Origin: Acutalibacteraceae bacterium
GTDB taxonomy: Bacteria; Bacillota; Clostridia; Oscillospirales; Acutalibacteraceae
Direction of reading: 5' to 3'
NCBI GenBank assembly: GCA_045648445.1
Contig: JAZRNY010000043.1
Coordinates: forward strand, 354-64,353
DNA: 64,000 nucleotides
In this document: positions 1,981-63,496 of the stretch, piece by piece
Layout of the letters: each line of letters opens with the position of its first letter
Position numbering within the stretch: the stretch's first letter is position 1
Translations under genes and position numbers: made by a program
The notes under the pieces: generated by a model
Seen by the model: the letters and a program-made list of their open reading frames with translations, nothing else
Databases searched by the model: none
Told to the model about the DNA's origin: nothing

Positions 1981-3174
1981 ATGAAAATTTTCGTAGTTAA
2001 CGCAGGCAGTTCTTCTCTTAAATATCAGTTAATTGATATGGAAACTGAGAGTGTTCTTGCAAAAGGTATATGTGAACGTATTGGCGTATCCGGTGCAATC
2101 ACACATAAAGCTGCTGACGGTAGAGAGTACAAGGCAGATACTGCTATGCCAACACATACAGAAGCATTTGAAGCAGTTGTATATGCTATGACTAAAAGTG
2201 AAGCAAAAGTTATTGATTCTTTTGATGAAATTTCTGCTATCGGTCACAGAATAGTACAAGGTGGTAGCATCTTCTCTAAATCTTGTCTTATCAATCCTAC
2301 TGTGCTTGATCAAATCGATGAATTGGGCGCACTCGCACCATTACACAATCCCGCTCACGTTCTTGCCATTAAGGCTTGTATCAAAACATTCGGTGAAAAA
2401 ATCCCTCAGGTAGCAGTATTTGATACATCATTCCATCAAACAATGGAACCTATGGTTTATATGTTTGCGCTTCCTTATGAATATTATGAAAAGTACGGCG
2501 TAAGAAAATACGGTGCGCACGGTACTTCTCATCACTTTGTAAGTGATAGAGTTGCTGTTCTTGAAGGTAAGGATAAGAAAGATCTTAAAATTATTGTTTG
2601 CCATATCGGTAACGGTGCTTCTATTACTGCAGTTAAAGATGGCGTTTGTTGTGACACCTCAATGGGCTTCACTCCCCTTGACGGTTTTATGATGGGAACC
2701 CGTACAGGTACACTCGATCCTTCCGCTTTAACCTTTATTGCGGAAAAAGAAAATCTTACTGCAGCACAAATTAACGACATTTGTAACAAAAAGTCCGGTA
2801 TGCTTGGTGTTTCCGGAATTTCTAACGATAACCGTGATGTTTGCGCCGCTGCAGATGCAGGTAATGAACGCGCAAAACTCGCAGTAGACATGCAAAGATA
2901 CCAAATTCTTAAATTTGTTGGTTCTTATGTTGCTGCTATGAATGGTGTTGATGCAATTGCATTTACTGCAGGTATCGGCGAAAACGATCCCGATCTTCGC
3001 CAGTATGTATGCGACAACCTCGGTTACTTAGGTGTTAAGATTGATGACGAAAAGAACCATGTGCGCGGTCAAGAAATCAAAATTTCTACTGAAGACAGCA
3101 AGGTAGACGTTTTTGTAATCCCTACAAACGAAGAACTTGCTATTGCACGTGATACCTTAGCGCTCATATCTTAA
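1981..3174 (+). CDS. ackA: acetate kinase
   Basis: 397 aa. Starts MKIFVVNAGSSSLKYQL, with GHRIVQGG, FDTSFHQTM and IPTNEELAIA motifs. Confidence 0.95.
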   Translation: MKIFVVNAGSSSLKYQLIDMETESVLAKGICERIGVSGAITHKAADGREYKADTAMPTHTEAFEAVVYAMTKSEAKVIDSFDEISAIGHRIVQGGSIFSKSCLINPTVLDQIDELGALAPLHNPAHVLAIKACIKTFGEKIPQVAVFDTSFHQTMEPMVYMFALPYEYYEKYGVRKYGAHGTSHHFVSDRVAVLEGKDKKDLKIIVCHIGNGASITAVKDGVCCDTSMGFTPLDGFMMGTRTGTLDPSALTFIAEKENLTAAQINDICNKKSGMLGVSGISNDNRDVCAAADAGNERAKLAVDMQRYQILKFVGSYVAAMNGVDAIAFTAGIGENDPDLRQYVCDNLGYLGVKIDDEKNHVRGQEIKISTEDSKVDVFVIPTNEELAIARDTLALIS

Positions 3175-4511: not shown

Positions 4512-5618
4512 TTAGTGCAATTTAACATCAATCCATAAATCTTCATAGTAAAAACGAATGTCTTTGTTTAAATCGTGATAGTATTCAGTTTTTGGCATTT
4601 TTTCTTCTGGTGGATATAAAATTTCATTTCCATAATAATAGTATTCAGGATTGTTAAACACTGTTTTATTAGGCGAAGCATACCCAATATATTCAGCGTT
4701 AGCAAGCGCAATATCGGGTTCCAGCAAGAAATTAATATAAAGCATAGCCGCCTCGATATTTTGACAACAAGAGGGAATGCAAGCAGCATCTACAAAAATA
4801 TTAGTACCTTCCTTAGGATAAAAGAAAGCCAAATCTTCATTAACTTCATACATAGTTAAATAATCGCCTGCGTAATACGGAGCAATAGCGGCTTCGCCGG
4901 TTTCCATTTTACCATAAACTTCATCCATTACGTAAGATTGTAGATATTGTTTTTGATCTTTTAAAAGTTGTACTGCTTTATCCCAATCGGCGATATTGTC
5001 GCTGTTTACGCTCATACCACCATAAAATTGTGCGGTCATAAATGCGTCGCGAGGATTACTGAACATCAAAGTTTGATTTTTGTATTTCTCATCCCAAAAA
5101 ACGCTCCAACTTTCCTCAACATCTTGCACCATAGAGGTGTTATATATAACACCAACCATACCTACGTTATATGGAACAGTATATTTGTTTTCAGGATCAA
5201 AATACAAATTTTTGTACTTATCGTCAATATTTTCGTAATTAGTAATTTTTGAATAATCAATCGGGAGCAACATTTCTTCTTTAATCATACGATCAATCAT
5301 ATAATCCGAAGGAATAATTATATCATAAGAAACACCCGCTGTACGCAGTTGAGAATACATAGTCTCGTTACTTTCGAAGGTCGAATAGTTAACCTTTATA
5401 CCCGTAATTCTTTCAAATTCTTTATTAACGTCAATACTTTCATCAGAACCATCAGAAATGTATTCACCCCAATTATACACGTTTAAAACTGTACCTTGAA
5501 GGTTATTAGTGTAATCCGCATTAAGATTTAACTCAAAATACTCATATCCGCAACCTGAAAAAGAAAATAATGATAAGCAAATAACAAAAATAAGAATTAA
5601 ATTAAAAACTTTTTTCAT
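4512..5618 (-). CDS. potD: spermidine/putrescine ABC transporter substrate-binding lipoprotein
   Basis: 368 aa. Signal peptide with lipobox FSGC. Lies in an operon with potABC-like genes. Confidence 0.85.
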   Translation of the reverse strand: MKKVFNLILIFVICLSLFSFSGCGYEYFELNLNADYTNNLQGTVLNVYNWGEYISDGSDESIDVNKEFERITGIKVNYSTFESNETMYSQLRTAGVSYDIIIPSDYMIDRMIKEEMLLPIDYSKITNYENIDDKYKNLYFDPENKYTVPYNVGMVGVIYNTSMVQDVEESWSVFWDEKYKNQTLMFSNPRDAFMTAQFYGGMSVNSDNIADWDKAVQLLKDQKQYLQSYVMDEVYGKMETGEAAIAPYYAGDYLTMYEVNEDLAFFYPKEGTNIFVDAACIPSCCQNIEAAMLYINFLLEPDIALANAEYIGYASPNKTVFNNPEYYYYGNEILYPPEEKMPKTEYYHDLNKDIRFYYEDLWIDVKLH

Positions 5619-6418: not shown

Positions 6419-7242
6419 ATAAGTACACCACCGTCTTCGCCGTCGGAAACTCTGTTCATAATAAACAAAGAAACCAAAATAATCATCATAAGAACAAGAG
6501 AGATCGAAGAAGCAACGTTGTAATAATCAGGACCTAAATTAAACAAATATTCTATTACGTCACCAATTAACATAGTTTTGTTGCCACCAAGTTTTTGGGA
6601 GATATAAAATGTGCTTACACTAGGTACGAATACCATAGTTATTCCCGAAACAACGCCCGGAAGACTTAAAGGGAAAATAACCTTTCTAATTACATTTAAA
6701 CGGTTTGAACCTAAATCTTCAGCAGCACCAATCAGCGAATTGTCTATTTTTGACATTACGTTAAAAATCGGTAAAATCATATATGGTAAAAAGTCGTAAA
6801 CCATACCTAAAATAACGGTACCGGGTCTGTTAATAAGATGTAACGGACCTATACCAAACTTTTGTAAAAATGTATTAATAATACCGGTATTAGACAAAAT
6901 TGTTATCCACGAATAAGTACGAATCAAAAAGTTAGTCCACATCGGCAACATTGTAAGAATCATCATAAAACGTTGAGTAGATGGCTTACACTTAGTCATA
7001 AAATAGGCGAGGGGATAAGCAATAATTAGGGTTATAATAGTGGAGATAAATGCGTAAAGCAAAGAGATAAAGAAAGCGTTTTTGTATCTTCCAAGGTTAG
7101 CGAAATTAGCAAAAGAAAATACGCCGTTAGCGTCGGTAAGCGCATAATAACCCATTATAAACAAAGGTACTATTATAAACAACGCAGACCATACTACGTA
7201 TGGTGCGCGCAAAAAAAGTTGCCCTAAAGATGATTTTTTCAC
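6415..7242 (-). CDS. potB: spermidine/putrescine ABC transporter permease
   Basis: 275 aa with EAA motif ([19 protein letters not shown]). Translationally coupled to its neighbours. Confidence 0.85.
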
Positions 7243-19374: not shown

Positions 19375-19449
19375 GCGGGTGTAGTTCAATGGCTAGAATT
19401 CCAGCCTTCCAAGCTGGCCGTGTGGGTTCGATTCCCATCACCCGCTCCA
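19375..19449 (+). tRNA. tRNA-Gly (anticodon UCC), CCA encoded
   Basis: Hand-folded cloverleaf. Acceptor GCGGGTG/CACCCGC, anticodon loop cTTCCaa, T-loop GGTTCGATTCC. Confidence 0.9.
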
Positions 19450-19450
19450 A

Positions 19451-19478
19451 ACCGTCAATTTGTTGACGGTTTTATTTT
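19451..19478 (+). terminator. terminator-like hairpin plus T-run between the two tRNAs
   Basis: accgtcaa-tttg-ttgacggt followed by tttatttt. tRNA-Arg starts 7 nt later with no promoter in between. Confidence 0.6.
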
Positions 19479-19484
19479 AAGTAA

Positions 19485-19560
<76 letters not shown>

Positions 19561-19561
<1 letters not shown>

Positions 19562-19595
19562 AAAAACTCTCGTTCTTCGGAGCGAGAGTTTTTTT
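19561..19595 (+). terminator. intrinsic terminator of the tRNA operon (copy 1 of the 34-nt palindromic module)
   Basis: A6-ctctcgttc-TTCG-gagcgagag-T7. The stem is 9 bp with a UUCG tetraloop. Confidence 0.85.
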
Positions 19596-19790
19596 ATCCA
19601 TTGCGAAAGCAATGGCATATCATCACGCTTTAGCGTGTATATCATCAAAGGCGGCGTGCCGCCTTTGTATCTCATCACACCTGTAGGTGTGTATTAAAAA
19701 CACTTTCGCAATGATGATATACAAAACTTTGTTTTGATGATATGCAATTCCTTACGGAATTGATGATATACAATGCTCCGCATTGATTTC
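19596..19790. repeat. hairpin array A: 7 different mini-hairpins joined by constant linkers (4 units TGTATATCATCA-type, then 3 units TGATGATATACA-type)
   Basis: Read directly; details are in the findings. The stretch is non-coding. Confidence 0.85.
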
Positions 19791-19916
19791 CCGCCGCTTT
19801 TATGCTATGCTTGCGCTACAATAGGGACAAAAATTTTATTATAAATGAACCTTTTGGTGTGCTTTTACGACTATATAAGTGAAACCGGTTTTAAAGAACT
19901 TATAGGAGGTGAGGCG

Positions 19917-21185
19917 ATGTCTAATTTTGAGGATTTGCTTCTCTGTAATCAATTGTCTGTTGAACGATTTGTGAAATTCAGGATTCCAAATGTTTCGGAT
20001 GCTGAAGATATTCTGCAAGAGGTGTTTTTAACTGCATTTAAGAGCTTTGGGCAACTTAAAACAGAAGCATCTTTCAAAGCGTGGATATTAGGTATTGCAC
20101 GACATAAGTGTAATGATTATTTTAGGGAAAAATCCAAAGATTTAGAAATATCTATCGAAGAATTAAACGAATTCGGGCTTTCGCAAACACGATTTGGATA
20201 TGTTGAGAATAATACAGTCAGCGATGTATTGGAGGGACTTGGTGATAAAGATAAACAAATTCTTTATCTATCATATTGGAAAGAGTTGCCTCAAACTGAA
20301 ATTGCCGCAAGGTTGGGCATTCCTATCGGAACTGTCAAAAGTCGCTTATATACTGCTAAACAAAATTTCAAAAGGATATATCCAACAAACACTTATATTA
20401 GAAAGGTTGATGATGTTATGAATAAACTACCAGATAGATTACCTGATTATAAAATTACACCGTTATCTAAAACACCCTTTACTGTAAAATGTGAGGAACT
20501 TCAAGGTTTGAGTATTATACCAAAACTCGGAGAAAAAACAACTTGGGGATTGTATGATTTTGAAACTAAAAAATGTGATGAGTATTCTGAGGTTAGCGTA
20601 ATAGGCAAAGCGGAGGTTCACGGTATTGAAGGTGTTGAAATAACGAGCATTCAGCACGATATAAAAAAAAATCGAAAAAACGAAAGAGTATTTGTTGCTC
20701 AATTGACAGATACACACTGTCGATATTTATCGGAAACTCATCAAGAAAACGATGTTAAAAAAACCATTACATTTCTTGATGGTGAGGTTTTTATGAACAA
20801 CTGGGGTTTTGGTGAAGATAATTGCGGAAACGAAACTGAATTAAAATCTAAAGGCATCATAAACCGCATTGGAAATAACATTACCAAAACAGGCGATAAT
20901 GAAATAATAGACATTGTAGGGTGTTTCAAAGTTGAAATAGGTAAAAAGAGTTTTGATACAGTATGTGTAATGGATTTGGGACATTTTAACAATGCGATTG
21001 CAATAGAACAGTATATTGATGAAAACGGAAGAACAATTCTTTGGCGTAGATTCAACCGTGATGATTGGGCAATAAAACGTTATAAAAAGAAATGGAGTGA
21101 ACAACTCCCCAACAACGAACAACTTATTATTAACGGAGAAACTTATGTTCATTGGTATGATTGCATAACGGACTATATATTTTAA
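19917..21185 (+). CDS. ECF-type sigma-70 family factor (regions 2 and 4) fused to a ~270-aa C-terminal domain of unknown function
   Basis: Start moved to ATG 19917 (RBS GGAGGTG 5 nt upstream). Region 2: DAEDILQEVFLTAFKSF...WILGIARHKCNDYFR. Region 4: LPQTEIAARLGIPIGTVKSRLYTAKQ. The C-terminal part has no TM segment. Confidence 0.8.
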   Translation: MSNFEDLLLCNQLSVERFVKFRIPNVSDAEDILQEVFLTAFKSFGQLKTEASFKAWILGIARHKCNDYFREKSKDLEISIEELNEFGLSQTRFGYVENNTVSDVLEGLGDKDKQILYLSYWKELPQTEIAARLGIPIGTVKSRLYTAKQNFKRIYPTNTYIRKVDDVMNKLPDRLPDYKITPLSKTPFTVKCEELQGLSIIPKLGEKTTWGLYDFETKKCDEYSEVSVIGKAEVHGIEGVEITSIQHDIKKNRKNERVFVAQLTDTHCRYLSETHQENDVKKTITFLDGEVFMNNWGFGEDNCGNETELKSKGIINRIGNNITKTGDNEIIDIVGCFKVEIGKKSFDTVCVMDLGHFNNAIAIEQYIDENGRTILWRRFNRDDWAIKRYKKKWSEQLPNNEQLIINGETYVHWYDCITDYIF

Positions 21186-37581: not shown

Positions 37582-37586
37582 ACAAT

Positions 37587-37615
37587 AAAAGGACTGTTAT
37601 TACAGTCCTTTTATT
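37587..37615. terminator. bidirectional intrinsic terminator (tRNA operon / HAD hydrolase gene)
   Basis: aaaaggactgt-tatt-acagtcctttt. Confidence 0.8.
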
Positions 37616-37618
37616 GCT

Positions 37619-38440
37619 TTATATATTAATTGTTCCGTTATCTAAATCATAAATTACCTTAGCGATTGCATTTTTATCATTAGAAATGGTTATGTAATCA
37701 GCGATTTGCTTCAATTCATCAATAGCGTTTTCAACCGCTACCCCAACTTTTGCGGTTCTAATCATACCCAAATCGTTGTTATAGTCACCAATTGCTATAG
37801 TTTTGCTCATATCAACACCTAACAATTCGGCAATTTTGGGTAACACTATACCTTTATCAACGCCTTTAGGCAAAATTTCATATAGCCAACTGTCAGAACG
37901 TATAAAATCAAATTCATCGGCTCTGCTATGATTTTTAAGCATTACAGATAATTTATCAATGTTTTTAGGATTTAAGTCCGCAAAAATTATTTTAGCAATA
38001 TTTTCTTTAACATCATAATAATGTTTTTCAAGATTTTTCAAACCTGTTTGACGTCTAAACTCTTCCATAGCGCTAGTATTTTTACTAAAATACACATTTT
38101 TATATGTACTTATTTGAATGCCGATGTCAGGCATATTTTTATCAATAAATTCTACAAGTTCAAGCACTGAATTATCAATTGGATTAATATATAAATATTC
38201 ACCTTTTTTATAATCGTAAATGCCACCACCATTTATACAACCAAACGGAGCATTTGGCTTAACAACATTATATATGTTTGAAACATAAGATGGCATTCGT
38301 CCTGTAACAAAAGTAAAATAACCGCCATTATTCATAAAATATTCTATTGCTTTAATATTTTCGTTCGAGACTTCGTGATTAGAATTGAGTAAAGTTCCAT
38401 CCAAATCACTACACAATAAAATTCCTTGAAACTTTTTCAT
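37619..38440 (-). CDS. Cof-type HAD-IIB family hydrolase
   Basis: 273 aa. Starts LLCSDLDGTLL, with the C-terminal GDYNNDLGM motif. Confidence 0.85.
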   Translation of the reverse strand: MKKFQGILLCSDLDGTLLNSNHEVSNENIKAIEYFMNNGGYFTFVTGRMPSYVSNIYNVVKPNAPFGCINGGGIYDYKKGEYLYINPIDNSVLELVEFIDKNMPDIGIQISTYKNVYFSKNTSAMEEFRRQTGLKNLEKHYYDVKENIAKIIFADLNPKNIDKLSVMLKNHSRADEFDFIRSDSWLYEILPKGVDKGIVLPKIAELLGVDMSKTIAIGDYNNDLGMIRTAKVGVAVENAIDELKQIADYITISNDKNAIAKVIYDLDNGTINI

Positions 38441-38503
38441 AAATTACTCCGTTTTTTAATAAAAACTCCCTTGAATTGCATTTACAATTCAAGGGAGTTT
38501 ACT

Positions 38504-52484: not shown

Positions 52485-52579
52485 TGAAGCGGGATGCAAA
52501 AAACAGACCGCAACCAATGGTTTTCGTCTAACCGGCAACTCCCCGTCCCGTCAGCACTTCACGCCTGAATTTTTACTCT
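52485..52579 (-). promoter_or_regulatory. THF (tetrahydrofolate) riboswitch
   Basis: The minus strand reads AGAGUAAAAAUUCAGGCGUGAAGUG...GGGACGGGG...CGAAAACC...GCGGUCUGUUUUUUGCAUCCCGCU. This matches the conserved AGAGUAG..GCGU.AAGUG...UUGCAUCCGCU core as I remember it from the published THF riboswitch sequence. Confidence 0.8.
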
Positions 52580-52722
52580 TCAAAATTAATTTACGAAAAT
52601 AATTATAATTACTTTATTATATTTTGTCAAGAAATATTGTTTTTGTGGCAGAAATTGCAAATTGGTCATAGTATATATTGAGTTTTAGGAAATCTAAGAC
52701 TAATATTTTAAGGAGGATTTTA

Positions 52723-62370: not shown

Positions 62371-62715
62371 GGGGGCGTAAAGGTTTCGACAGGGACCGTG
62401 AAGTACGGGAAGCGAGCGGTGGCGTGGGACCACCTTAAAACTCACAATTTTAAAATTAAACGACAACAATAAAGTTGCTCTTGCTGCCTAATTAGGCAGC
62501 CGTCCGAACTGAGAGTACCGCGGCTCAGCCAGGGCGTCGATTAGCGGTGAACATGAACGGAAGGTCGCTCATCCTTCCGTCACGACTTTGAGCTACCAAT
62601 GATATTAGAGTGACATTTCTCGAATAACTGCGGGAAATCAAACAAATGTCTGCGCTCGGAGATGCCTGTATGAATCGATCTTTGGACAGGGGTTCGACTC
62701 CCCTCGCCTCCACCA
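62371..62715 (+). ncRNA. ssrA: transfer-messenger RNA (tmRNA)
   Basis: 5' GGGGGCGTAAAGGTTTCGACAGGG and 3' GGACAGGGGTTCGACTCCCCTCGCCTCCACCA. The tag frame ends ...N-D-N-N-K-V-A-L-A-A-stop (TAA 62489-62491). Confidence 0.95.
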
Positions 62716-62754
62716 AAAAGAAGTAACTTTTGTCTACCAAAAGTTACTTTTTTT
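62716..62754 (+). terminator. intrinsic terminator of ssrA
   Basis: aagtaactttt-gtctacc-aaaagttactt followed by T7. Confidence 0.85.
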
Positions 62755-62940
62755 ATCCAAGCCGCAGGATTGGCATATCATCACCGTGCGAAGCTCGGTG
62801 CATATCATCAGCCCCTTTGGGGCTGTATATAATCACGCGGCAGCGTGTATCATCCTGCGACTTAATGATATACCGCAACAAGTTGCGGATGATATGCAAA
62901 ACTTCGTTTTGATGATATACAACGGCAAGCCGTTGATTTG
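62755..62940. repeat. hairpin array B: same 4+3 architecture, linkers and boundaries as array A, with different hairpin sequences
   Basis: Read directly; details are in the findings. The stretch is non-coding. Confidence 0.85.
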
Positions 62941-62961
62941 TTTTCGAAAATGTAGTATAAT
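62933..62961 (+). promoter_or_regulatory. sigma-A-type promoter (TTGATT-17-TATAAT) whose -35 is the right end of array B
   Basis: Hexamers and spacing read directly, 22 nt upstream of ATG 62983. Confidence 0.6.
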
Positions 62962-62982: not shown

Positions 62983-63159
62983 ATGGCAAAAAATTACTTG
63001 TTGACCTATGCAGAACAACTTGCAACTGATGTCGAATTGCTTTGTCAAAACATAAAAGCACCGTCCAACACTCTTTTCCAAATTCGCAAAAGTTCCAGTA
63101 GCGTTTATGCCAATATTCGTGAAGCCAATTACGGACAAAGTAAAGTTGTAAAACACTAA
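62983..63159 (+). pseudogene. truncated four-helix-bundle protein (23S rRNA-IVS / Avd-like family), 58 codons versus ~120 expected
   Basis: My own translation gives MAKNYLLTYAEQLATDVELLCQNIKAPSNTLFQIRKSSSSVYANIREANYGQSKVVKH*. The motif R.S.S...NI.EA....SK is typical of the family, and the protein stops right after it. RBS AAAGGAG. Below the ORF-track cutoff. Confidence 0.5.
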
Positions 63160-63172
63160 AGGAGAATGCAAA

Positions 63173-63496
63173 ATGAAGAACAAGCCAATTGTTATCGGGA
63201 TTATAGCTGTTGCTTCTCCAATACCACTGGTGATTTTTACCGCAATATGGAGTTGGATATGGTTTTTCGGCATAGGTATGGGATTACTAAACTACGATAC
63301 TGTTCCTCAATGGATACTTGTTGTTTCGTTGCTACCTTTATTTATTAGTCCAATTTTTGGTTTGATGGGCATAATTCATAGTATGGTAAATATCAAAACA
63401 AAAAAAGCCTGGTTTGCATTCTTTTTGTCCGTAATAGGATTGCTTGAAAATTTCATCTTGATTTACGGAATGTATTATCTCGGAAGTAGATTTTAA
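63173..63496 (+). CDS. small hypothetical membrane protein (107 aa, 3-4 TM helices)
   Basis: RBS AAAGGAGAA. Strongly hydrophobic segments. Followed by a terminator. Confidence 0.6.
   Translation: MKNKPIVIGIIAVASPIPLVIFTAIWSWIWFFGIGMGLLNYDTVPQWILVVSLLPLFISPIFGLMGIIHSMVNIKTKKAWFAFFLSVIGLLENFILIYGMYYLGSRF

Follow-up and report, generated by a model that had tools for sequence, protein, structure and literature searches.

REP/BIME elements, found with RAYT genes in Enterobacteria and Pseudomonas, are multi-copy, extragenic, hairpin-forming repeats that lie near gene ends and terminators. They alternate in orientation with linkers between them, probably act as single-stranded DNA, and are paired with a single cognate gene that acts in trans and has the repeat on its own flanks; the palindrome of a REP is conserved and its linkers are variable. 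HUH relaxases and transposases recognise a hairpin and then a conserved single-stranded tail. Pneumococcal BOX elements (boxA-(boxB)n-boxC) are modular and intergenic, with conserved modules of ~45-60 nt, a variable number of modules and a stable structure, and can influence neighbouring genes, and in CRISPR arrays constant and variable segments alternate regularly. Runs of short direct or inverted sites lying just upstream of a promoter, and bound cooperatively by an autoregulating small protein, are known from the omega-protein heptads of pSM19035 and from parC iterons.

The proteins of TIGR02436/PF05635 are the "23S rRNA intervening sequence protein" family and are related to Avd of diversity-generating retroelements; the stems of 23S rRNA intervening sequences are cut by RNase III. 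In Leptospira and Coxiella these intervening sequences place a gene of the same family in a stable-RNA unit beside inverted repeats (PMC4990558). Stable DNA mini-hairpins are of the types d(cGNAg) and GCGNNAGC (PMC3201870, PMC13037366), and the natural cGNAg and cGNNAg examples are priming and promoter signals of single-stranded DNA (PMC3201870, PMC13037366); in the phage G4 origin, RSF1010 ssiA/ssiB and the phage N4 virion RNA polymerase promoters, cGNAg-type mini-hairpins occur in single-stranded or extruded DNA (PMC13037366).

Here we describe two arrays (A and B), each a series of small hairpins joined by a constant linker, in a stretch of 64,000 nucleotides from an Acutalibacteraceae bacterium (the window). 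Array A follows a forward-strand operon of tRNA-Gly(TCC) and tRNA-Arg(TCT) (19375..19561, found with ARAGORN and Rfam; tRNA-Gly at 19375-19449 and tRNA-Arg-TCT at 19485-19561 in the tRNA scan), the 3' end of which abuts the cassette. A bidirectional intrinsic terminator on the forward strand comes next (19562..19595), consisting of an A-run, the stem ctctcgttc / gagcgagag with a TTCG loop, and a T-run (19589-19595), and is followed by the left end ATCC with the first hairpin, HP1 (ccattgcGAAAgcaatgg, folding as ccattgc-GAAA-gcaatgg; together 19596..19615, forward strand). In the left arm (19616..19694), where the plus strand is the favoured hairpin strand, three linkers reading (T)G(Y)ATATCATCA (19616-25, 19636-47 and 19666-77) each precede one hairpin (HP2 19626-35, HP3 19648-65, HP4 19678-89), and a partial linker TGTAT (19690-94) closes the arm. 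The centre, 17 nt on the forward strand (19695..19711), is an A/T-rich spacer (19695-19702) and then CTTTCGCAA (19703-19711). In the right arm (19712..19789) the minus strand is favoured; three linkers TGATGATATRCA, starting at 19712, 19735 and 19761, are again each followed by one hairpin (HP5 19724-34, HP6 19747-60, HP7 19773-83), and the array finishes with TGATTT (19784-89). Every linker contains TGATGA. A promoter-like site on the forward strand overlaps the array end (19783..19811: -35 TTGATT at 19783-88, 17 nt, then TGcTATGCT with the -10 at 19806-11) and lies upstream of an ECF-sigma-like ORF starting at 19917. The layout given in the original prediction, hairpins and a constant linker in two opposed halves, agrees with the sequence as read (19596-19789), and sequence reading and the tRNA scan bear out its placement of the element as non-coding and directly behind the tRNA-Arg terminator.

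Array B (62755..62939, no strand assigned) is the twin of array A. It stands behind a forward-strand tmRNA gene with its bidirectional terminator (gaagtaacttttgtctaccaaaagttac plus T-run; together 62371..62754, tRNA/tmRNA scan and Rfam), and opens with ATCC and an HP1 of sequence ccaagccgcaggattgg; a left arm of three linkers leads to CTGCGACTT at the centre, and a right arm runs to the final TTGATTT. Its promoter, on the forward strand (62933..62961), has TTGATT at 62933-38, 17 nt and TATAAT at 62956-61, and downstream lies a truncated gene of 58 aa (62983..63159, forward strand) for a TIGR02436 four-helix-bundle protein of the type called subfamily 1 below. Both arrays open with TTTTTTT-ATCC and close with TTGATTT, and they have almost no hairpin sequence in common. 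At up to one mismatch, TGATGATATRCA occurs 12 times in the window against 0.72 expected, a number that none of 100 shuffles reached, and 11 of the 12 matches belong to array A or array B. Within the window arrays lie behind tRNA-Arg and tmRNA and not behind tRNA-Gln or tRNA-Pro, and in other genomes the terminator type of the tmRNA gene is found behind tRNA-Glu, -Ser, -Tyr and -Leu as well. The ClpC-like and sigma-factor-like proteins of the window had no match in an exact-match protein index.

A search of relatives, as the original prediction had proposed, found the same architecture at no fewer than 119 loci (at least 119 with TGATGATATRCA-N8-20-TGATGATAT, in one scan of species-representative genomes), so the array is not limited to the two copies of the window. 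Among the matches listed, nearly all are MAGs, recovered for the most part from gut samples, that bear the label of Acutalibacteraceae, Oscillospiraceae, Christensenellaceae or other Clostridia, and clustering of the motif among these listed matches yields ~127 arrays. In the dominant layout three linkers in one orientation are followed by three in the other, with ~145 nt from the first linker to the last; the reverse of this two-armed arrangement was found in none of the ~127 clustered arrays. One-directional arrays of 3-9 units are also present, and blocks of units have clearly been duplicated in tandem (L071). The two-armed form is polar, its ATCC end always abutting the T-run of the terminator, and 37 of the 65 two-armed arrays with visible flanks (57%) have the 3' end of a tRNA or tmRNA gene 54-65 nt before the first linker core. 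These 37 span 14 tRNA amino-acid types and tmRNA. A tRNA or tmRNA 3' end at that spacing occurs in 0 of 20 one-directional arrays, which also have no consistent orientation relative to neighbouring genes. Several of the remaining two-armed arrays stand behind apparent tRNA 3' fragments (for example ...CACCA); at one locus (L219) a tRNA-3'-like fragment is found just beyond two paired serine-recombinase genes such as integrated mobile elements carry. A comparison of related tRNA loci, likewise proposed at the start, found no array at the orthologous clpC to tRNA-Gly-Arg-His-Gln locus of more distant relatives, in which the promoter comes directly after the terminator. Blastn against plasmids gave no array match. 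A viral collection gave 19 matches, of which several are due to chance or to host sequence bordering a provirus, and one one-directional array is present on three overlapping viral contigs.

The elements on either side of the array are equally regular. A few homologous terminator types turn up repeatedly, across genomes and behind various tRNAs, in shuffled combination with HP1 types, and at one locus (L235) the terminator is duplicated in tandem together with the array; the terminator therefore belongs to the unit. At the opposite border, TTGATT closes 30 of 59 arrays, and 16 of the 59 are followed at a spacing of 16-18 nt by a -10 that matches at 5 or more of 6 positions (control 3%), often as TGnTATAAT; in some subgroups a 5' leader and a ribosome-binding site are conserved too. 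A clear -10 is present in only about a third of copies. What recurs is thus a lineage-specific intergenic cassette in the gap that separates the end of a tRNA or tmRNA operon from the gene that follows; its bidirectional terminator and two-armed array are often joined by an outward promoter with the array end as its -35.

The hairpins of the arrays are under structural selection. Across 290 distinct units, stem pairs 3-6 are Watson-Crick in 83-91% of cases with all four pair types in use, against 25-41% in controls in which the 5' and 3' stem halves come from different units; compensatory change thus keeps the pairing, and the hairpins first noticed in array A are genuine. They had been called unrelated, and here the comparison disagrees: stems are drawn from a vocabulary that recurs across loci (118 distinct 5' stems among 453 units), with ATTCC, AAAC, CGC and ACAC among the recurring ones. 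Loops are strongly strand-specific. On the TGYATATCATCA strand, 66 of 142 triloops are GNA and 2 are TNC, 47 of 61 tetraloops are GNNA and 3 have the reverse-complement form, and the closing pair is 5'C-G3' in ~90% (132/142 triloops, 54/61 tetraloops). This strand coincides with the tRNA-sense strand in the left arm only; in the right arm it is the other strand, and in each arm it runs 5'->3' towards the centre. The sequence of the hairpins is free, while pairing, the C-G closing pair and the G..A loop are conserved.

By their sequence pattern (C-G closing pair, a G..A loop of 3-4 nt, one strand) the array hairpins fit the d(cGNAg)/d(cGNNAg) class of DNA mini-hairpins. The adjacent terminators serve as an internal control for RNA hairpins: 18 of their 37 tetraloops are TTCG, on the tRNA-sense strand only (reverse complement 0), and TNCG is found in 0 of 61 array tetraloops. 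Stems read on the favoured strand contain 57 G-T and 43 A-C pairs, and hence no excess of G-U. These patterns are moderate evidence that the array hairpins would work as single-stranded or extruded DNA; the reading falls short of proof because GNRA-type loops also suit RNA, and a transcript reading through from the tRNA operon would contain the left arm with its loops in the favourable orientation.

One meaningful protein cluster emerged from an all-against-all comparison of 951 ORFs within 4 kb of arrays, a "four helix bundle protein" of ~115 aa (TIGR02436, PF05635), for which the closest solved structure is 2RLD; in the same set of ORFs no transposase, HUH or integrase family is enriched, the four-helix-bundle (4HB) family being the only enriched one. 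The TIGR02436 gene starts ~63 nt after the last linker core in 12 of the 14 loci of the cluster, behind different tRNAs, and in some copies it would be driven by the array-end promoter. All further loci fetched for 4HB homologues, two independently chosen homologues among them, have an array directly upstream. The gene is found beside only ~14% of arrays. Counted over non-redundant upstream regions, repeat type matches 4HB subfamily in 27 of 28 loci: subfamily 1 lies behind TGATGATAT arrays (14/14), subfamily 2 behind arrays of the same architecture built on TGATTACAT (9/9, including the loci L011, P0192 and P0130), and subfamily 3 behind arrays of TTCACT heptads (4/5). In this third repeat type the order is tRNA, terminator, inverted heptad arms (TTCACTN) with a copy of a terminator half at their centre, a final hairpin and the promoter, and the heptad arms themselves are free of hairpins. 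Arrays of both hairpin types also occur without a 4HB gene and side by side in the same loci, and one locus (L003) has a hybrid array with both linker types. That the 4HB protein reads the linker is suggested by the match between repeat type and subfamily, and we consider it a serious possibility that stays short of probable because physical linkage and shared descent alone could yield the correlation. We know of no member of the 4HB family for which sequence-specific binding of this linker-reading kind has been demonstrated.

Other explanations turn on how the two arms relate to one another. According to the original prediction, a single strand of RNA or DNA zips its linkers into ~10-bp helices and a stack of four-way junctions, which might make the array a structured non-coding RNA of a new kind. 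Left-arm and right-arm linkers are indeed largely complementary, array A folds far better than its shuffles (z -7.3 to -8.4, as DNA or RNA, either strand), and minimum-free-energy folds include linker helices (z about -7 to -8); to that extent folding as RNA and as single-stranded DNA agrees with the proposal, and the comparative data give it no backing. Left-right linker changes in 32 arrays comprise 5 compensated and 92 one-sided cases, no better than shuffled pairings (7.9 compensated on average), and the linker variants are arm-specific, TGATGAGAT being frequent on the left and rare on the right. Where an array runs in one direction only, over as many as 9 units, the linker is retained with nothing complementary to pair with, so its conservation cannot be put down to pairing; nor is there space for a promoter between the T-run and ATCC, or a matching family in Rfam. 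The zipper is accordingly a very unlikely account, and the missing covariation, the arm-specific variant and the partnerless arrays together indicate that the linker is conserved as a recognition sequence. A complementarity that does covary joins HP1 to the centre: the 5' half and loop of HP1 are complementary to the piece that immediately precedes the first linker of the right arm, in an exact run of 10 nt or more in 47 of 59 arrays (mean 10.2 nt, against 6.0 nt in cross-locus controls) and over six covarying sequence types. In array A this piece is 19703-19713, and the CTTTCGCAA within it (19703-19711) is at once complementary to the 5' half and loop of HP1 and a direct repeat of the HP1 3' half. 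At L100 types are swapped. The complementarity could reflect alternative folding, or else recombination or copying that makes use of inverted repeats. Were these 10-13-bp inverted repeats recombinase sites, the left arm that they flank in most loci might be flipped or deleted, and the swap at L100 and the third repeat type, which follows the same logic with a terminator half instead of HP1, would both fit; yet a flipped locus was recognised in none of ~130 arrays, no recombinase gene is consistently nearby and the left-arm segment contains no obvious promoter, so that we regard an invertible or recombination-prone segment as extremely improbable.

Two broader alternatives are each unlikely in our estimate, though less remote than the foregoing. 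In one, the array acts at the level of RNA, in read-through or antisense transcripts, as a back-up bidirectional terminator (Rho loading), an RNase III site or an exonuclease barrier that insulates the tRNA operon, the acting parts being hairpins with G-poor single-stranded linkers or a duplex between the arms. The position directly behind a bidirectional terminator and ahead of a promoter would suit this, as would the very strong predicted RNA folding and the fact that transcription from either side first meets an arm with favourable loops; 4HB genes in 23S rRNA intervening sequences (PMC4990558) offer an analogy. Against this, the stems lack a G-U excess over A-C, the loops are GNA/GNNA and not the UUCG of the RNA hairpins next door, left and right linkers do not covary, one-directional arrays have no consistent orientation to neighbouring genes, and the heptad arms of the third repeat type contain no hairpins at all. 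In the other alternative, the arrays are selfish or domesticated repeats that act as single-stranded DNA in the manner of REP/BIME, hairpin and conserved tail being the substrate of an HUH-type or other single-stranded-DNA enzyme through which arrays spread, expand and recombine. Multi-copy, lineage-restricted elements absent at orthologous loci of relatives, with units and whole modules duplicated in tandem (L071, L235), terminator and HP1 types shuffled between loci, types swapped at L100, a loop pattern of the single-stranded DNA type and a unit that shares the layout of HUH substrates are all what this predicts. Against it, the only family enriched near arrays is 4HB rather than any transposase, HUH or integrase family, copies in the same genome differ in nearly every hairpin (A versus B), unlike those of a recently active element, no target-site duplication was seen, and the 3+3 architecture with its exact placement between T-run and -35 suggests selection at each locus.

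Several narrower candidates were also tried and rejected. A minus-strand small RNA using the shared terminator would need a promoter to the right of the array, where none is consistent and the conserved one points away. Tn7-like or MITE ends and integrase arm sites are disfavoured by the lack of a target-site or tRNA 3' end duplication at the right border, and the terminator within the interval belongs to the repeat. DnaA boxes match poorly (TTATCCA at the left end, 7 of 9 consensus positions; the linker, 6 of 9), and the spacing does not fit a promoter at every linker.

The reading that we prefer, in which the array acts in cis and a cognate factor (4HB being the candidate) reads it in trans, mainly on single-stranded or extruded DNA and in a boundary or operator role, is put forward tentatively, at somewhat less than an even chance. 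The functional unit would be the constant 12-nt linker (TGATGATATRCA, or TGATTACAT in the sister family) with its small hairpin, and each arm a run of such units. Hairpins would form on one strand, that running 5'->3' towards the centre in each arm, probably as single-stranded or supercoil-extruded DNA, and would display or space the linkers as recognition sites for a sequence-specific trans-acting factor. The best candidate for this factor is the small TIGR02436 4HB protein, whose subfamily matches the repeat type. The bound array could then form a nucleoprotein boundary or operator between a very active tRNA unit and the downstream promoter, and copies with no gene of their own, such as array A upstream of its ECF-sigma-like gene, would be further cis sites for the same factor.

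A more general hypothesis, which we find rather doubtful but worth stating, is that TIGR02436/PF05635 proteins are sequence-specific array readers, and that protein and cognate array together are an unrecognised kind of cassette at the 3' flank of stable-RNA operons. Such a cassette would colonise the flanks of tRNA, tmRNA and perhaps 23S rRNA operons, bringing its own terminator and promoter, and gene-less arrays, array A among them, would be regulon sites or copies that are not autonomous, recognised in trans through their strand-specific DNA mini-hairpins. If the account given here holds, abundant gut Clostridia have in these arrays a new family of structured intergenic repeats, whose constant linker and free but paired mini-hairpins invert the logic of REP and CRISPR, and the arrays would be among the few chromosomal cases in which the rules of stable DNA mini-hairpins, and not those of RNA, appear to be selected. 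It would also provide a first testable handle on a very common protein family, in that TIGR02436 subfamilies gain differing predicted cognate sites. The array raises the issue of what keeps strongly transcribed tRNA operons insulated from adjacent genes. For annotation, arrays break assemblies, can confuse predictors of repeats, CRISPR and small RNAs, and mark tRNA-linked integration hot spots.

The array appears to be undescribed, lying outside the families of Rfam and lacking the sequence-level hallmarks of REP/BIME, CRISPR, attC, C/D-box RNAs and terminators. At gathering thresholds, Rfam 15 found only tRNAs, tmRNA and a THF riboswitch in the whole window; Rfam likewise had nothing on the arrays of 18 related loci; a permissive scan of 19480-19920 returned only chance matches far below threshold (C/D-box snoRNAs, via TGATGA), so the view that this is no recognised RNA family holds at both settings. 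Literature searches by linker sequence and by topic brought up no relevant description. A box C/D sRNA or kink-turn is rejected: TGATGA would be the C box, no CTGA D box was seen when array A was read, and the Rfam hits score 17-22 bits against thresholds of 30-70. Array hairpins precede a linker and not a T-run, and the hairpin at 19567-19595 is the only one that qualifies as an intrinsic terminator. The original prediction had also set the array apart from REP/BIME, attC and CRISPR, and the sequence-level features that define each of the three are absent. Integron attC sites would have R''/L''...L'/R' boxes (GTTRRRY), of which none was found on reading, and a single palindrome of 57-141 bp as opposed to palindromes of 10-18 nt; with its 118 stem variants the family has no one conserved palindrome of REP/BIME kind; and CRISPR direct repeats measure ~23-55 nt in one orientation, with unique spacers of about equal length between them, compared with a constant part of 12 nt in two opposed arms.

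Among described systems, REP/BIME comes close in each of the traits named at the outset, multi-copy extragenic hairpins near gene ends, alternating orientation, probable action as single-stranded DNA and, in 4HB, one candidate cognate gene flanked by the repeat. The arrangement is nonetheless reversed, a constant linker with variable palindromes in place of a conserved palindrome with variable linkers, and the arrays differ further in having no GTAG head and no Y1/HUH gene nearby, and in their strong bias to tRNA and tmRNA 3' ends, fixed 3+3 form and fused terminator and promoter. The arrays may chiefly serve the host, as boundary or operator, or chiefly themselves, as a repeat of REP/RAYT kind. 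BOX shares the modular intergenic build, the variable number of modules, the stable structure and the possible influence on neighbouring genes; compared by description, it is set apart by its long conserved modules, unlike a 12-nt linker with a free hairpin, and by having no known tRNA association or partner protein. CRISPR shares the regular alternation, but here the constant part is 12 nt and non-palindromic, the variable parts are palindromes of 10-18 nt, the two halves are opposed and there are no cas genes. RSF1010 ssiA and ssiB lie on opposite strands, in a way that resembles the two arms, and the phage and plasmid mini-hairpin signals share the hairpin type; those signals stand singly, as priming or promoter sites in the DNA of phages or plasmids, whereas the arrays are chromosomal runs of 6-9 units with a constant linker behind tRNA genes. 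The 23S rRNA intervening sequence lies inside the rRNA with inverted repeats flanking the ORF, whereas the arrays precede the gene and follow a terminator. The third repeat type is a heptad array like that of the omega protein of pSM19035, although omega and parC sites are contiguous double-stranded DNA on plasmids, with no hairpin spacers and with ribbon-helix-helix binders, in contrast to chromosomal arrays that contain hairpins and a four-helix bundle as the candidate. Taken as a whole, the arrays resemble small-protein operator arrays in their possible logic, and REP/BIME and BOX as modular, structured intergenic repeats.

A sister family of arrays carries a different linker, TGATTACAT, on an unchanged architecture, and is found in related loci from other genomes (L011, 7562-7691; L055, 3270-3401; L030, 3312-3391; L003, 7499-7645; and L235-L245). 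The array at L003 is a hybrid in which both linker types are present. Another subfamily of the gene encoding the TIGR02436 four-helix-bundle protein (4HB) has a third type of repeat upstream of it, at L109 (~2830-3000, minus strand), L246 (~640-880), and L248 and L249 (both ~700-880). This repeat is built from TTCACTN heptads set in inverted arms, without hairpins, and the 3' half of the tRNA terminator that precedes it is repeated within its centre.

In the window, array B is followed directly on its 3' side by a truncated copy of the 4HB gene (62983-63159, plus strand; 58 aa), and other genomes carry full-length homologues of ~115 aa at the matching position. A new open reading frame, encoding a 107-aa membrane protein, begins at 63173, after this remnant. 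Elsewhere (L219-L228, L092, L229-L234 and L248), the stop codon of 4HB and the start codon of the gene downstream overlap. That gene varies: examples encode an AAA_15/AAA_21 ATPase, an unknown 181-aa protein, or a TetR_C_8-domain protein, after which comes a distinct gene for an S8 peptidase. This arrangement looks like translational coupling of 4HB to accessory cargo, which is possibly defence-related.

On a single contig (L100), the types of HP1 (the first hairpin, complementary to the array centre) and of the centre are swapped between two arrays (4575-4698 versus 6910-7034), which suggests recombination between them; and in L235 (~800-1190) the entire terminator-plus-array module is duplicated in tandem. 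In L219-L222 (~1-2046), genes for large serine recombinases, together with a 3' fragment of a tRNA, directly adjoin the left side of the cassette of bidirectional terminator and two-armed array, an arrangement consistent with a mobile element having integrated into a tRNA gene, with the cassette left at its far end.

The tRNA-Gln and tRNA-Pro terminators of the window (37582-37615 and 38440-38503) are ordinary and have no array; therefore, only some stable-RNA operons of this genome carry the cassette. The window also contains a THF riboswitch (52485-52582, minus strand; Rfam, 81.7 bits), which has no relation to the arrays.

Other sequences lie beside some of the arrays. Just to the right of those in L054, L059 and L099 is a conserved stretch of ~60-70 nt with the inverted repeat GTTCGAACAC...GTGTTCGAA, followed in at least L059 and L099 by a terminator-like hairpin; related sequence occurs in L016, L018, L027 and L053. 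This stretch may be a small RNA or the remnant of a tRNA-like attachment site. The sequence TATGCTtgcgctacaatagggacaaaaat (window 19806-19840), 3' of the array-A promoter, is conserved in other genomes (L038 and L094). It may be a leader that these genomes share, or else a further promoter. Some one-directional arrays, whose linkers all have a single orientation, are adjoined by palindromes of the classical REP-like kind, headed by GTAG, such as GTAGGGGTCGACGTCCCCGACGACCC (L001, ~4850-4900 and 4975-5010; L079, after 6490; L069, after 6040), and these palindromes are a repeat family separate from the arrays, within the same genomes.
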